Assembly (NCBI GenBank): GCA_965197475.1
Contig: CBDANF010000003.1
Span: 2,679,223 to 2,743,222 of the forward strand
Direction of reading: 5' to 3'
Length of the DNA stretch: 64,000 nucleotides
Source: Candidatus Poribacteria bacterium
Lineage (GTDB): Bacteria > Poribacteria > WGA-4E > WGA-3G
A program made the translations under genes and the position numbers. The notes below the pieces were generated by a model. It worked only from the letters and a program-made list of their open reading frames with translations, was not told the origin of the DNA and made no database searches. This document shows positions 1 through 48,483 of this stretch, one piece after another (position 1 is the stretch's first letter; each line of letters opens with the position of its first letter).

Positions 1-1185
1 TCCAACAAGACCGGAAACGTCTTGGGTATCTGCACCGAATCGGGGGGTAAACCCACCGGGAAAAAGTTCTTGGAATGTGAAAAGTTCATCATCCTCAAGA
101 ACTTGTTGTAAAGCCTCTGGGTCTGGAACATTATCGGTTATCTGGACCACAGGAACTTCGCCTTCTCCGGACAAACGTCCAACGAGTAAGGTTTCCCCAC
201 CATCGTTACTAAAAACAGCTGGTCGGGTATTGGGATTTCGGAAATAGAACCCGCCTTCAACTTGCTTCTGCGCGTAGTTCGCATGACCGTAGAGTTGAAT
301 GTTATTGACAATATCAATCCCATAGTTTGCAAAGAGCTTGATGTCGTCTCTAATAATCGGGTGTCCCCAGGGTTGAGCGGGATTGGCAACATTGCTATTT
401 CCTGCGGCGGAAAGTGCGGCTGCATCATCCCGTTGTACTGAACGATCTGTCTCGTCCGCATTACCGTATTCCAAACTAAGGTTTGCCCAGATATCTTCTC
501 GTCCTAAACCGATATTACCAGCGACAGAATATGTCAGACCGTCACTAAATTGGTAAATACCGGGTTTAATTACCAAAGAACCGCCTTTGTAACCGTCTTT
601 TAATTGTAAGTTCATCACACCGGCAATAGCATCGGAACCGTATTGTGCCGATGCACCATCTCGTAGAACTTCCATCTGTTTAATCGCAATAGAAGGAATA
701 GGTGAGAGGTCCGCACCTTGCGAACCATCGGATAATCCGTTGCCGAGCCAAGTAATAACAGAAGCGCGGTGGCGCCGTTTGCCGTTGACGAGTAACAACG
801 TATGATCAGGTGCTAATCCTCGTAGGTTAGCAGGACGCACGACGGTTGCTGCATCAGCAATAGGCTGCGCATTCACATTGTAAGAGGGCACCAAATTTCT
901 TAATAGATCAGGCAAATCTGTCCCACCCTGTTTAACAAAGTCGTCGCTGAGCACGACATCAATAGGCACAGTGGATTCAAGAATGGAACGTGGCTTTGCA
1001 CGCGTGCCGACAATAACCAAACCTTCAAGTTCCACGACTTCTTGGTCAGATGATGCTTCGCTTGATTCAGTTTCAGTATCGCTTTCATGGTTATCTGCTA
1101 CAGCGACAGGTAAAAAAACCATAGAAACCGCTAATGCTATGTAAAACGAGAGCAGAAACGGCTTAATATCAGATGTACCTTTCAT
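1..1185 (-). CDS. TonB-dependent receptor, N-terminal part (3' end runs off the window start)
   Basis: The frame from ATG 1183-1185 stays open to base 1, so it is absent from the ORF track (no stop in window). My translation starts MKGTSDIKPFLLSFYIALAVSMVFLPVAVADNHES (signal peptide). It continues with ...YGHANYAQKQVEGGFYFRNPNTR...FTFQELFPGGFTPRFG, colinear and clearly paralogous to the 923-aa receptor next door. Confidence 0.8.
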   Translation of the reverse strand, partial: MKGTSDIKPFLLSFYIALAVSMVFLPVAVADNHESDTETESSEASSDQEVVELEGLVIVGTRAKPRSILESTVPIDVVLSDDFVKQGGTDLPDLLRNLVPSYNVNAQPIADAATVVRPANLRGLAPDHTLLLVNGKRRHRASVITWLGNGLSDGSQGADLSPIPSIAIKQMEVLRDGASAQYGSDAIAGVMNLQLKDGYKGGSLVIKPGIYQFSDGLTYSVAGNIGLGREDIWANLSLEYGNADETDRSVQRDDAAALSAAGNSNVANPAQPWGHPIIRDDIKLFANYGIDIVNNIQLYGHANYAQKQVEGGFYFRNPNTRPAVFSNDGGETLLVGRLSGEGEVPVVQITDNVPDPEALQQVLEDDELFTFQELFPGGFTPRFGADTQDVSGLVG

Positions 1186-41235: not shown

Positions 41236-43349
41236 TCAGTTTCCAACTCCTCTAACATCTTATCAATTTTACGAAACTGCCAACCCCATCGTGTATTATA
41301 TAAGAATTGTCGTAGGTCAAATCGGTTGTCATCAGGCGAATAGGGTTCGGCGTGGTATGCAGGGGTTAATGTCGTCATCTTATGCCGATTAATAGCGTAG
41401 TAGCGGAAAAACCTTTTGACCTTCTCTGCTACTTCACCGGCAGGTAGATGATTCCATTCCTGAACAAGTTTTTCAAACATACTGACAGGACCACACCGAT
41501 GCACTTTTCGGAGCTGTCCGAAACGACTCAACTCGGTGTATGTCATTCCCATATCTTCTTCATCGGTTTGAGTGTAGGTCTCAGTGATAGGTTCTAATTC
41601 AGCAGTTGGCGGTGCCTCAAGGATAGTGCCGAGGCTTGGATAACCGAGATGCTCCGCTGCCCAGCGCAGAAAACTACGTAGATCCGTTTTGCTGATACTT
41701 CCAATCGGATTGATGTCGGCACTACTACAATCATATTTCGTCAGATAACCACGCAACGCCTCGTCAACATTACCTGTGCCTAAGACAAGAAGCGTGCCGC
41801 GCCTATTACGAACCCACGGCAACGTCTGTGCAAAAAGATAACTGATGACCATCCGCAGACGCGCCTGTATGTTTTGAAGTGCCTGATTCTCTATCGTGCT
41901 TCCGCCTTCGGTCTTGAACTGAGGCGTTTTGCCGGTTATACCAAAAAACAGTTTTCGCAAAGCACCCACAAGGGACTCCATGTTGATATCAAGATGATAG
42001 CTTCCAATTTCACTCGCCAACTGTTTTGCGCGATGCCGTGTTTCACGAGAACTGTTTGCTGTCCCTATGTAGCAAGTATAGAGCAGCTGATTTGCAATAT
42101 ATTGCGCTGCGGGCTGCGGATCACTAAAATCGGTTTTGATTTTTTCTACACATTCGGCACCAAGCAACGTTTCTGCATCACGGATAACGTGCGGCATATC
42201 AGCAAGAATCGCTTTTGCAACGAGTTGACACATAGAACCGACAAGCGTCGCAACAGCACCGCTATCCGAACCGCCCGAAAGCGGAACGAAAAAGCCTGCT
42301 GCTTCGGAACGCCTCAGATAATCCCAAAGCCAACATGCCGGACCAAGCGCAATCTCTTCTTCAGGCGTGTGAATGTTGAGGTCAACCTTCGGAACGGTGA
42401 CAGAACGTTTTTCAACATCTGTCACCTTAAAATCAGCATAAATTTGCGGAATAGAAACCCCATGACTTGCCTGCACTGCTCCACTCATTCTTGAACCGCG
42501 ATAGGATCGCACATCCCGTAAATCAACAGTCGCTGTGACAACTTCAACATCATTGATAGAAAATTGTGAGCCTTGTGTGAGGATGTGTCCGTTTTGCGCT
42601 ATCGTTGCGCAACCATCGAAATAGAGCCTGCCACCATCACAGCCCTGCTGATTCGCATAAAGGTAAACCCCGCCACATTTTTCTGTCGCATTTCGAATCA
42701 GCGATAGACGCGTATCAAGTTTGCGAAGTTCGTGATGTGAACCCGATCCATTGGCAATTATCTCAACGCCGTTATATGCAAGATCAATATGCGGGGAGTG
42801 CGGTGCAAACAACTCTTCACAGGTTTCCGATGCCAAAACTGTATCGTGTGTCACAATGACGGCGCACCCTATCGGCACAGTACGATTCGGTGTGATTTCG
42901 AGGATCTCAGGCGGCACCTGAAAAGGTTCCGTTGTCCATCCTTTTTGCCATGCGGTAAACCAACGTGGCTCCCGATAGTTCCCTTCAGCAGCAAGCACCA
43001 ATTTTGGACGAATTAGAAGAATCTTCCCATCACAGACAAACACGCGGCAGTTGTAACGCACACTTTTGTGCATGACCGGCATCCCAATATCGCACAAGAT
43101 ACCGTTGGTATGCCCACCGATTATGATCCGTGCCAGGGATTCCCAACTATGACGTAACGTATCTTCTTCAAGGAAATGATCTTCACATGAATAACCCGTT
43201 ATCTCAAGTTCAGGACCGAGCCGATAGCGCGCTCCTGTCGCTTTAGCACGTTCAATCGATTCAATGATGCGATCACAATTTCCCTCAAAGTCAAGTGCCC
43301 ACTGATTCAGGTTGCACGTTGCAAGTGTTGTTTTCATATTTTTACACAA
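41232..43349 (-). CDS. nadE: Glutamine-dependent NAD+ synthetase, long (eukaryote-like) form
   Basis: The 705-aa ORF has an N-terminal nitrilase/CN-hydrolase domain ([16 protein letters not shown]...PELEITGY). The C-terminal PP-loop synthetase has SGGSDS. The start is either 43349 or the MKTT Met at 43335-43337. Confidence 0.9.
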
Positions 43350-43459
43350 TTAGTAGTTTTGCGATTAAACCTTAACAAAAATCCCTTGCTTTTTCTTTTT
43401 TAGCATTTTTATTTGACATTTTGACAATTTTTGTGGTATCATATTTATGTTCAGAGTAA

Positions 43460-43567
43460 AAACCGCTGAACACCTTATGGAGGAGGCGGGAATCGAACCC
43501 GCGAAAAATGAGTGCTAACCCCATATCCAGAACCATCTCTCCCCCATATTTAGGTGTTCAGCGGTTT
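43460..43567 (-). ncRNA. tRNA-like RNA (68-nt core 43478-43545) enclosed by a 15-bp leader/trailer stem
   Basis: The minus-strand core is GGGGGAGAGAUGGUUCUGGAUAUGGGGUUAGCACUCAUUUUUCGCGGGUUCGAUUCCCGCCUCCUCCA.
- T-arm: perfect (GCGGG-UUCGAUU-CCCGC).
- Acceptor stem: 7 bp, with G3:U70.
- Anticodon-like arm: 5-7-5 (loop GUUAGCA), followed by a 5-nt variable loop.
- D-arm: about 4-5 nt too short for a canonical tRNA.
- Flanking stem: AAACCGCUGAACACC (leader) pairs with GGUGUUCAGCGGUUU (trailer), followed by U residues. Confidence 0.45.
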
Positions 43568-43571
43568 CATT

Positions 43572-43600
43572 ATTATAATACATTTTCTGCCTGTTTGCAA
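43572..43600 (-). promoter_or_regulatory. Promoter for the tRNA-like RNA (TTGCAA-17-TATAAT on the minus strand)
   Basis: The reverse complement of 43595-43600 is TTGCAA and that of 43572-43577 is TATAAT, with a 17-nt spacer. The predicted start falls at the first bases of the leader stem. Confidence 0.45.
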
Positions 43601-43831
43601 ATTAACACCCCAAATTTATCTTTAAAAAAAGTGCTATAAATCCTTATGTAGACTACATTTTGGCTTGATTTAATTCTAATTGAGTCAAAAAACAGCCTAA
43701 TTAGACAACAAAATTACCATAAACCCAGTATTCATGCGCTGCGGAATATAGGTTTTATAGTTATCAGTCATCAGCATTCAGCAAAGAGGGCTTCTCTTAA
43801 CTAACTGCTGATTGCTGACCGCCGATGACTA

Positions 43832-47118: not shown

Positions 47119-48483
47119 TTACAACACTCCTTGCTCTTTAAGTTTAGCAATAAGTTCTGCCTGCGTTCCAGTGCCTTTAGTAGAATTACAAGCCCCACAG
47201 AGAAGTTGCAAGTTATCCTTGTGGTCTGTGCCACCGTGTTTTTGTGGGACAATATGATCTACAGTCAAATTACGGAATGGAAAATGAGTTCGGCAGCCAT
47301 TGCAGACACCTTCCTGTTTACCATAAAGTGTGTGTTTGTGGGTTTGGTAATTAGGCAATTTCTCACTGCGCTTGGGTATATCGGTTCGGTGTGTTACATC
47401 ATAAAACATTCCAAGTTCTTTCTTAAGACGCATTTTGACAAGTTCTACGGCTTTTTCTGATATATCAATACCGATCCACTGACGGTTTAGACGCTCTGCT
47501 GCCACGCAGGTTGTTGCACAACCGCAGAAGGGGTCTAATACCATATCACCTTCTTTTGATGATGCCTTGATTATCCGTTCTAATAATGCTAATGGTTTTT
47601 GTGTGGGGTAGCCTGTTTTTTCGTTTCCTAATACTGGCTGTATATCTGTCCATAAATTATTTGCTGGCATTCCTTCCTTTAAACGGTGTTTACGATATAC
47701 TTTTCCGTTGGCAAAATCAAGTTCACCTTCTTCATCTAATTTTTGTAGTGTTGATTTTTTTACAGTCCATCCGCTTGGGTTTGGCGGATAAAATCCTTTA
47801 TATTCATAGCAAAGATTTGGACGCTCTCCTAATCCAGGAGGTCTGAATGGATTTCGTCTTTCATATTTTCCTTTTTCATCTTTAAATTTGAATTTTTTTA
47901 GATATTCTTCACTGAATGGAATAAGGTCTGAATTTATATCAAATTTACTATTATGATATGCGTAATATAGAATTTGGTCTGTTGACGTGCCGTATGATTT
48001 TTCTTTATACTGTGTTGTTTTACCTGCTCCCTGTATGCGTTGCCAAACAATTTCATTTCTAAAGTTTTCTTTACCAAAAACACTATCCATAAGAATTTTT
48101 AGATAGTGACTTGCTGTTGGATCACAATGAAGGTATATACTTCCTGTATCTTTCAAAACACGTTTCATCTCAAGCAGGCGGATTGACATCATTATTAGAT
48201 ATGATTTCATTCCCTTTCCGTGTGTTATTTCTGATGTCTGTATTGCCTGATATAAAGCGGGTTCACGGTCTGCGATTTCGCCGTGCCAAGCATTGTCAAC
48301 GTCTGATAGTGTCCACGTATCCTTAAACGCTGCACCAGCAGCTTCACTGCCAATTGGAGCTGCGTAATTTCGGTTGGAATTGAAAGGTGGATCAAGGTAT
48401 ATTAGATCTGCGGACTGGGTGTCCAAACCACGCAATATATGTAAATTATCATTACTAAAGATTGTACGATTATTAACATTCAT
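47119..48483 (-). CDS. DNA methyltransferase (beta-class N6A/N4C, PF01555-like) fused to a C-terminal HNH nuclease motif
   Basis: The 454-aa ORF has motif IV LIYLDPPFNSNRNY near the N-terminus and motif I VLDPFCGCATTCVAAE later. The C-terminus CNGCRTHF..LTVDHIVPQKHGGTDHKDNLQLLCGACNSTKG is a complete CxxC..H..N..H..CxxC HNH finger. Confidence 0.85.
   Translation of the reverse strand: MNVNNRTIFSNDNLHILRGLDTQSADLIYLDPPFNSNRNYAAPIGSEAAGAAFKDTWTLSDVDNAWHGEIADREPALYQAIQTSEITHGKGMKSYLIMMSIRLLEMKRVLKDTGSIYLHCDPTASHYLKILMDSVFGKENFRNEIVWQRIQGAGKTTQYKEKSYGTSTDQILYYAYHNSKFDINSDLIPFSEEYLKKFKFKDEKGKYERRNPFRPPGLGERPNLCYEYKGFYPPNPSGWTVKKSTLQKLDEEGELDFANGKVYRKHRLKEGMPANNLWTDIQPVLGNEKTGYPTQKPLALLERIIKASSKEGDMVLDPFCGCATTCVAAERLNRQWIGIDISEKAVELVKMRLKKELGMFYDVTHRTDIPKRSEKLPNYQTHKHTLYGKQEGVCNGCRTHFPFRNLTVDHIVPQKHGGTDHKDNLQLLCGACNSTKGTGTQAELIAKLKEQGVL

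Follow-up and report, generated by a model that had tools for sequence, protein, structure and literature searches.

The window analyzed here is a stretch of 64,000 nt from a genome of Candidatus Poribacteria, a sponge symbiont. Between nadE and a 437-amino acid open reading frame (ORF437), it carries a compact cassette on the minus strand, built around a 68-nt core that resembles a tRNA or the tRNA-like domain (TLD) of transfer-messenger RNA (tmRNA). A promoter precedes the core, a long stem formed by the leader and trailer of the predicted transcript (the clamp) encloses it, a run of U residues follows, and a second promoter faces the unit from the opposite strand (Table 1; coordinates are those of the whole window). 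An earlier note on this DNA had described a self-contained transcription unit here, and promoter, clamp, core, and U-tract all lie as it claimed. What it missed is that the cassette belongs to a dispersed, lineage-specific family, which includes full-cloverleaf versions and tandem arrays and in which the clamp and both promoters are kept across about 47 copies. The RNA fold of this family is under purifying selection.

In the predicted RNA of the window copy, 4 nt separate the -10 hexamer from the 5' arm of the clamp. The earlier note had given the clamp 15 bp; its complementary arms and the U residues that follow stand, but the length is 16 bp. Three additional pairs, between UAU (43548-43546) and A73-U-A, join the clamp to the acceptor stem, and UA lies between the end of the core and the clamp 3' arm. 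The 68-nt core, its T arm, its 7-bp acceptor stem (GGGGGAG/CUCCUCC) with a G3:U70 wobble, and an anticodon-like arm with C at position 37 were found where they had been placed (G3 at 43543, U70 at 43481, and A73 at 43478), as was the short D region, in which 14 nt separate G7 from the anticodon-like arm; 10 of these form a mini D-arm that covaries in the family. Both promoters likewise proved to be in position, TTGCAA-17-TATAAT with 10 of 12 matches in the promoter scan and the plus-strand site, TTGACA (43413-43418) followed after 18 nt by TG-TATCAT ending at 43442, with 11 of 12. A downstream CUGAACA, for which an alternative pairing with the trailer had been proposed, is indeed present at 43454-43448, but the pairing has no specific support, and a GAAC beside the antisense -10 box recurs in many copies. 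The 131-nt stretch as a whole folds into a single rod with a three-way head at a minimum free energy (MFE) of -59.1 kcal/mol (z = -7.2), and none of 200 shuffled sequences folded as well.

Table 1. Features of the cassette and of the insertion that carries it, in window coordinates
Feature	Position	Strand	Basis or remark
-35 box TTGCAA	43595-43600	-	Promoter scan; sense promoter 10/12 matches
-10 box TATAAT	43572-43577	-	17-nt spacer from -35; promoter scan
Clamp 5' arm AAACCGCUGAACACCU	43552-43567	-	Perfect pairing with 43460-43475
Leader AAA bulge + UAU	43546-43551	-	UAU pairs with A73-U-A (MFE fold)
68-nt tRNA/tmRNA-TLD-like core, G1 to A73	43478-43545	-	G3:U70; Rfam tmRNA alignment
Mini D-arm AGA-UGGU-UCU (3 bp, 4-nt loop with GG)	43529-43538	-	Fold and covariation
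Anticodon-like arm AUGGG-GUUAGCA-CUCAU	43508-43524	-	U33, C at position 37
T arm GCGGG-UUCGAUU-CCCGC	43486-43502	-	Same as T arm of host ssrA
Clamp 3' arm AGGUGUUCAGCGGUUU	43460-43475	-	Partner of 43552-43567
Five-U run	43458-43462	-	Clamp 3' arm runs into U stretch
CUGAACA	43448-43454	-	Could pair with trailer UGUUCAG; start region of predicted antisense transcript
Convergent antisense promoter TTGACA-18-TG-TATCAT	43413-43442	+	11/12 matches, promoter scan
413-bp insertion	43344-43756		nadE/ORF437 intergenic site empty in G008 and G017
IS1595-type terminal repeat CGCAAAACTACTAATTG	43347-43363	-	Insertion boundary 43344 directly after
Approximately 90-bp dispersed repeat	43664-43756 (also to 43759)		Far end of insertion

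The earlier note had concluded that this is not a normal tRNA gene, and our searches agree. With default settings ARAGORN makes no call in the window, and at a relaxed threshold it reports a 66-nt 'tRNA-Leu(tag)'. The RNA departs from a canonical tRNA in that positions 8-9 are missing, the D loop has 4 nt, and position 37 is C, and a standard or intron-containing tRNA was rejected, as no alternative fold gives a normal D arm. The note had overlooked that the core has the top half of the host tmRNA. At a relaxed threshold, the Rfam tmRNA model (RF00023) aligns with the core over model positions 1-374 at 46.7 bits (E = 1.7e-17), 0.3 bits under the gathering score of 47, and the alignment replaces the 306-nt middle of tmRNA with 11 nt; at gathering thresholds, Rfam matches nothing anywhere in the window. 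We compared top halves over 32 positions, comprising the 7-nt 5' acceptor strand and 25 nt of T arm, 3' acceptor strand, and discriminator. By this measure the window core is identical to host ssrA at 30 of 32 positions, with both differences falling in one compensatory pair, and its best match among host tRNAs is tRNA-Ala(CGC) at 27 of 32. Both identity elements of alanyl-tRNA synthetase (AlaRS), G3:U70 and A73, are present. CCA is not encoded, as it is likewise absent from the host tRNA and ssrA genes.

The rest of tmRNA is missing. We found no mRNA-like domain, tag frame, or pseudoknots, and ARAGORN sees no tmRNA or tag here while it finds the real ssrA elsewhere. The tmRNA D-loop motif UUCGAC and the GGAC junction do not occur in the window core, which has a covarying 3-bp D stem instead of the stemless D loop of a tmRNA TLD (PMC3968760). 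Judged by its sequence, then, the core is not a complete TLD. A comparison with the Y-RNA-like YrlA family (RF02553) gave 20.4 bits against a gathering score of 69, with a tRNA-shaped module that is not permuted and with rsr located elsewhere in the genome. In sum, tests for tmRNA, canonical tRNA, YrlA, and AlaRS identity leave only the last with a positive result.

The host has conventional versions of the genes that this RNA resembles. Its ssrA is normal (177.8 bits, tag ADQELALAA), a single smpB lies just upstream of it, no second smpB was found in the genome, and the tRNA set is full (n = 48). Beyond the window, the genome also encodes another TLD-only RNA, a mini-tmRNA of 85 nt (locus L002, on the minus strand at G000:C3:2526505-2526589), which scores 66 bits, above Rfam gathering. 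Its P2 helix is closed by a hairpin, and the UUCGAC/GGA junction is retained; the UUCGAC and GGAC motifs are present in both the real ssrA and this small RNA. The mini-tmRNA occurs in 15 of the 25 genus genomes searched, and four aligned copies share the promoter TTGAtA-17-TGGTATCCT and a downstream flank. On another contig, a homologue of Ro60/Rsr (TROVE), rsr (G000:C2:785076-786806), is followed by two YrlA-like RNAs (C2:786841-786920 and C2:789167-789289, locus L192) that score 28 and 41 bits, sub-threshold for Rfam. Together they indicate a putative Ro/Y-RNA system in Poribacteria.

To describe the family, we built a covariance model from eight copies. It had 111 positions and 39 pairs, and compensatory changes were already visible in 12 of the pairs. 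The model recovered approximately 47 full-length copies (E < 1e-7) in about 20 of 40 genomes of the genus, with 1-9 copies in each genome that has any and a patchy 0-9 per genome across the genus. Across a sample of 151 genomes from the phylum, matches occurred in 18 of 38 genomes of the genus and in 1 of 56 of the sister genus, and none of 50 genomes sampled from eight other Poribacteria families matched. These copies are related by descent, so the counts given here are descriptive and overstate independence. A pattern scan of viral contigs, in which 80 of 89 matches were tested, gave one partial tRNA-like hit and no cassette, and a phage origin was rejected on that result. Among the matches listed in a corresponding metagenome scan, there were only chance matches.

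The copies follow a common plan: TTGyAA-17-TATAAT, the clamp 5' arm, UAAAUAU, the tRNA-shaped core, A73-UAA, the clamp 3' arm, and a U-tract, with a promoter on the opposite strand (TTGACn-16..18-TAnnnT) placed 12-52 nt past the U-tract. The UAAAUAU that abuts G1 hardly varies. Of the 47 copies, 37 have the sense promoter pattern and 40 the antisense pattern, the latter against 2.6% of random 140-nt windows of this genome and 12% of its AT-rich ones. Promoter-less copies are mostly interior units of a tandem array in genome G046. In 31 of 42 copies, 4 nt separate the end of the -10 hexamer from the clamp, a spacing that should place the start of transcription in the first bases of the clamp arm. 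At least five U residues fall within 8 nt past the clamp arm in 40 of 47 copies, and the U-tract is found on both strands. The array (L058, G046:C50:37808-38576) holds seven clamped alanine-type units of two alternating subtypes, with one sense promoter at its start, one antisense promoter at its end, and a clamp in every unit. Such an arrangement argues that the clamp is a feature of each RNA and not only a terminator.

Upstream of many cassettes (L045:4790-4930, L047, L059, L062, and L089) lies a second clamped hairpin, with an 18-bp stem (GACCAAACUAAGUUAUCC...GGAUAACUUGGUUUGGUC), a core of approximately 35 nt, and its own outward TTGACA-18-TAGAAT promoter. This unit is probably a degenerate tandem cassette.

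Two types of core make up the family, 23 copies with the mini D-arm seen in the window and 24 with a full D-arm. Among the mini-D copies, 20 of 23 top halves are closest to tmRNA, several at 32 of 32 positions, and for 15 of the 24 full-D top halves the nearest host RNA is tRNA-Ala(CGC), which L062 matches at 32 of 32. Overall, 43 of 47 copies carry the top half of a host alanine acceptor. The requirement common to both types, as read from these top halves, is an alanine-accepting minihelix. The bottom half varies more. The loop of the anticodon-like arm follows the pattern N-U-U-N-N-C-A, most commonly CUUGACA, with C at position 37 in most copies, and at a relaxed threshold ARAGORN assigns the anticodons UGA, UCU, UGC, UAG, GAA, GAC, and others. 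In two copies the loop has 8 nt. The cloverleaf is complete, with U33 in a 7-nt loop, in 24 of 47 copies, and three copies have a UUGAAAG/C loop (anticodon GAA, A37). Copies L059 and L084 have lost both the D-loop GG and the T-loop UUC (T loop UGCAAUA or UGUAAUA), which may reflect a correlated change in the elbow contact or decay.

To examine selection on the fold, we aligned the 47 copies together with eight reverse-strand matches (alignment A3). In this alignment, which consists of kin copies, was fitted to the covariance model, and so leans toward structure, 92.8% of cells pair, compared with 73.6% in shuffles and 38-51% when the partners are slid. Changes on both sides occur in 37 of 39 pairs, including all five of the anticodon-like arm, and all five helices show compensatory changes. 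The clamp, which the earlier note had proposed to check for covariation, changes on both sides in 15 of its 16 pairs. The mini D stem alone occurs as AGA/UCU, AGC/GCU, ACA/UGU, and CGG/CCG.

Three further lines of evidence are independent of the model-fitted alignment. First, noncanonical pairs in the anticodon-like arm are strongly strand-biased, with 57 G-U against 4 A-C, which indicates that the sense RNA is the folded, selected strand. The clamp has about equal numbers (30 G-U and 23 A-C), which would fit a stem that is important on both strands or as DNA. Second, at least 38 of the 47 copies retain G3:U70 and 44 retain A73, and beside the wobble, pairs 5:68 and 6:67 swap freely between Watson-Crick types. 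Third, in two orthologous copies from two species (L090 and L093), the cores are identical at 76 of 76 positions in flanks that are 78% identical over 3.8 kb. Here the sense promoter is also identical, both antisense boxes are kept, the clamp shows one compensatory double change (G-C to A-U), and likeness collapses just upstream of the -35 box. On this evidence the locus is not the degraded integration-site remnant that the earlier note had allowed for.

Two other interactions were considered. A pairing between the loop sequence UUGAC and a downstream GUCAA shows no covariation in the family and was rejected; GUCAA is the antisense -35 box. Coevolution of the cassette with the T loop of host tmRNA could give no signal, since the top half of tmRNA barely varies within this genus.

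The earlier note had pointed to conservation next to nadE. We found nadE and ORF437 adjacent in 40 of 40 genus genomes, with and without the cassette, and the intergenic site is empty in relatives; the window copy is a 413-bp insertion. At its nadE-side boundary lies the terminal repeat CGCAAAACTACTAATTG, a type of repeat that ends 2.3-kb insertion sequence (IS) copies with an IS1595-like transposase and occurs 116 times in the genome (Pfam assigned IS1595 to a similar transposase, next to copy L064). Such a repeat is found 66-150 nt 3' of 24 of 47 cassettes, on one side only and with its inner side facing the cassette. The far end of the insertion is a repeat of approximately 90 bp whose copies, approximately 80-84% identical, are dispersed in several genus genomes (e.g., G000:C3:2809656, and multiple copies in G044). 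Units common to non-syntenic copies span 267-335 bp. Neither at the window site nor at copy L052 did we find a clear second terminal repeat or target duplication, and for L052 the intergenic region is too variable to fix the ends of an empty site.

The IS itself, of approximately 2.3 kb (e.g., G000:C2:98960-101250), has ends of the form CGCAAT(G/A)AGTAGTTTTGGACTTG and a transposase with a zinc ribbon and a DDE domain. Many solo ends and derivatives resembling miniature inverted-repeat transposable elements (MITEs) also occur, the ends carry promoter-like TGGTATAAT boxes, and the approximately 90-bp repeat partly resembles the sub-terminal region of this IS.

The genes around the cassette vary. 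The flanks of 15 other copies hold unrelated housekeeping genes and occasional transposases, with eight copies co-directional and seven convergent with the downstream gene. The lack of a shared neighbor or an orientation bias indicates that the cassette is neither a gene leader nor tied to a protein partner, and functional linkage to neighboring genes, including the invariably adjacent nadE and ORF437, was rejected. In two cases, homologues of a methyltransferase-HNH fusion lie nearby, at L048:3-1124 (approximately 200 bp from the cassette of G011) and at 47119-48483 of the window (3.6 kb away).

The reading we favor, tentatively and with slightly more doubt than belief, is that the cassette is a functional stand-alone small-RNA gene under antisense control, whose product would be an alanine-accepting mimic of tRNA and tmRNA that competes for the partners of tmRNA and tRNA-Ala. 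The tRNA mimic or decoy proposed in the earlier note thus remains the best interpretation. Under this proposal, the sigma-70-type promoter would start transcription within the first bases of the 16-bp leader/trailer stem, and the stem with its U-tract would end an approximately 110-nt transcript and hold both of its ends in duplex. Read on the opposite strand, the clamp has the same form and would therefore terminate transcription from either direction. Within it, the core would present the alanine-accepting top half of host tmRNA on a nonstandard bottom half, the 3-bp mini D-arm and the hairpin with C37. We infer that release would follow from RNase P cleavage at G1, 3' trimming after A73, and CCA addition, and that AlaRS would charge the released core. 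Maturation of tmRNA precursors likewise involves cleavage by RNase P and RNase III or E, and G3:U70 and A73 are the recognition keys of AlaRS (PMC3968760).

With C37, no positions 8-9, and a tiny D-arm, the core appears unfit for decoding, and it offers no tag frame; competition for the partners of tmRNA and tRNA-Ala is then the role that would be left to it. It may act as a competitor or decoy for SmpB, AlaRS, EF-Tu, or processing enzymes. There is precedent in a TLD-only molecule that strongly inhibits tmRNA, possibly via SmpB titration (PMC4131195). The convergent promoter, in turn, would give rise to a fully complementary antisense RNA that limits or neutralizes the mimic.

Several observations weigh against this proposal. 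The absence of the UUCGAC/GGAC junction and the presence of a small D stem make SmpB binding doubtful. Half of the family is of the full-D type with a tRNA-Ala-like top half, which better fits a tRNA-type role. RNase P cleavage and 3' processing may be impeded by the base pairs that join positions -1 to -3 to positions 73 to 75, and the RNA might then remain clamped. No protein partner is linked to the cassette in the flanks of the 15 copies, and the kinship of the copies means that the cross-copy counts behind the proposal are not independent.

The most serious competitor, which we consider unlikely, is that these are working tRNAs that insert alanine through non-alanine anticodons (UAG here; UGA, UCU, GAA, and GAC elsewhere) or that donate alanine to a non-ribosomal acceptor, for instance in a cell-wall or lipid pathway. 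Insertion would amount to regulated misincorporation of alanine, a harmful activity kept low by the antisense RNA. AlaRS ignores the anticodon (PMC3968760, in line with established knowledge), alanine identity is kept in the family whatever the anticodon, and the 24 full cloverleaves with a 7-nt loop and U33, including the three with GAA and A37, favor this reading. However, most copies, the window copy among them, have C37, and the window RNA has no positions 8-9 and a D-arm of 3 bp with a 4-nt loop. The 8-nt loops of two copies also fit poorly, the host already has every tRNA it needs, and we found no linked gene of the Fem or MprF type.

We give somewhat less weight to an extension of the mimic proposal, in which the cassette would be an all-RNA addiction or abortive-infection module. 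A clamp-protected, charged mimic would act as a translation poison, by SmpB titration or by placing alanine at non-alanine codons, and a short-lived antisense RNA would restrain it, all on a mobile cassette that has repeatedly borrowed the top half of host tmRNA or tRNA-Ala.

Less probable again is that the RNA is never opened and serves as a closed scaffold similar to Y RNA or 6S RNA, with the tRNA-shaped module recruiting Rsr/Ro60 or a tRNA-modifying or repair enzyme. The predicted start and end of transcription both lie inside the clamp, which would bury both ends in a helix, and the acceptor stem is lengthened by three pairs across the cleavage sites. The Ro60 (TROVE) homologue and the YrlA-like RNAs show that Y-RNA-type biology exists in this host, and the topology is like that of YrlA, though the match is weak. 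Against this stand the YrlA score, far below gathering, and the different order of the arms, and rsr is on another contig with YrlA-like RNAs of its own. Strict retention of G3:U70 and A73 is also hard to explain without a freed 3' end.

Lower still we place the reverse assignment of roles, in which the antisense transcript would be the effector and the tRNA-like RNA its cis-encoded sponge. Such a transcript could block maturation of host tmRNA or tRNA-Ala: it would be complementary over 25 contiguous nt to the 3' end of host tmRNA (to tRNA-Ala in the other subfamily), and the top halves are identical at up to 32 of 32 positions to host tmRNA or tRNA-Ala(CGC). The antisense promoter is conserved and nearer consensus than the sense promoter. 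The selected structure, however, including its G-U pairs, lies on the sense strand, and mature tRNA and tmRNA are tightly folded and would be poor antisense targets. Just as improbable is a selfish MITE-like repeat with a relic tRNA shape, or a leftover attachment site, with no RNA function, since the insertion polymorphism, the often adjacent IS1595-type terminal repeat, the patchy copy number, and clamp G-U and A-C counts like those of a DNA inverted repeat must be set against compensation in all five helices, strand-specific G-U pairs in the core, a retained G3:U70 wobble, an ortholog pair whose core and promoters are 100% conserved within flanks at 78%, and the presence of both halves of the tRNA shape, unlike the 3' fragments that integrases leave.

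The architecture of the cassette is well supported by sequence comparison, and its function is what we infer. Neither tRNA-like RNAs in Poribacteria nor cassettes of this kind were the subject of any paper we found, and the family appears undescribed: mobile, multi-copy, lineage-specific mimics of tRNA and tmRNA with a clamp and an opposing promoter. TLD-only RNAs are very rare in databases, and what is known of their biology comes essentially from one inhibition experiment. Here, approximately 50 natural variants follow a clear rule, in which the alanine-accepting top half is kept, from tmRNA or tRNA-Ala, and the bottom half is free. If charged, they would be a natural collection of alanine carriers that work apart from normal decoding and would bear on the control of ribosome rescue, on natural mistranslation, and on RNA-only toxin-antidote logic. 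The family also shows a structured RNA gene traveling as a mobile cassette in uncultivated symbionts, and the covariance model would let annotators find genes that current tRNA and tmRNA finders miss or mislabel.

Among known systems, the TLD-only tmRNAs, such as that of mycobacteriophage DS6A, are like the window RNA in their length of approximately 65-85 nt, in keeping the alanine-type acceptor and T arm, in the loss of the reading frame and pseudoknots, and in their coexistence with a normal ssrA. 'Standard, no coding sequence (CDS)' tmRNAs account for 9 of 97,179 database sequences, from phage DS6A, two plastid sequences, and possibly Nasuia and one other bacterial group; no named group is Poribacteria (PMC11915505). 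What sets the window RNA apart from these is its small D stem and anticodon-like hairpin, its lack of UUCGAC/GGAC, its 16-bp clamp and convergent promoter, and its membership in a multi-copy, mobile family with sister copies built on the tRNA-Ala top half. With tRNA-Ala and alanine minihelices, it shares G1:C72, G2:C71, G3:U70, A73, a canonical T arm, and the lack of an encoded CCA. It differs from tRNA-Ala in having no U8 or position 9, a 3-bp D stem with a 4-nt loop, a GUUAGCA loop with C37, a non-alanine 'anticodon', and a paired leader and trailer, and in escaping ARAGORN at default settings.

YrlA, like the window RNA, has a long stem of 5' and 3' ends that bears a tRNA-shaped module; in contrast to YrlA, the order of the arms is not permuted here, there is no Ro-binding bulged helix, and the gene does not lie beside rsr. 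A different kind of parallel is offered by the cis-antisense pairs found in mobile elements, such as IS10 RNA-IN/RNA-OUT, and in type I toxin-antitoxin loci. In these, convergent promoters yield fully complementary transcripts, as is predicted here, and the distribution is patchy and multi-copy too. At the level of promoter sequence the cassette resembles them, with the convergent promoter present in 40 of 47 copies and kept in orthologs. Where those pairs control a peptide ORF or a transposase mRNA, the window cassette has neither, and its controlled product would be a structured RNA.

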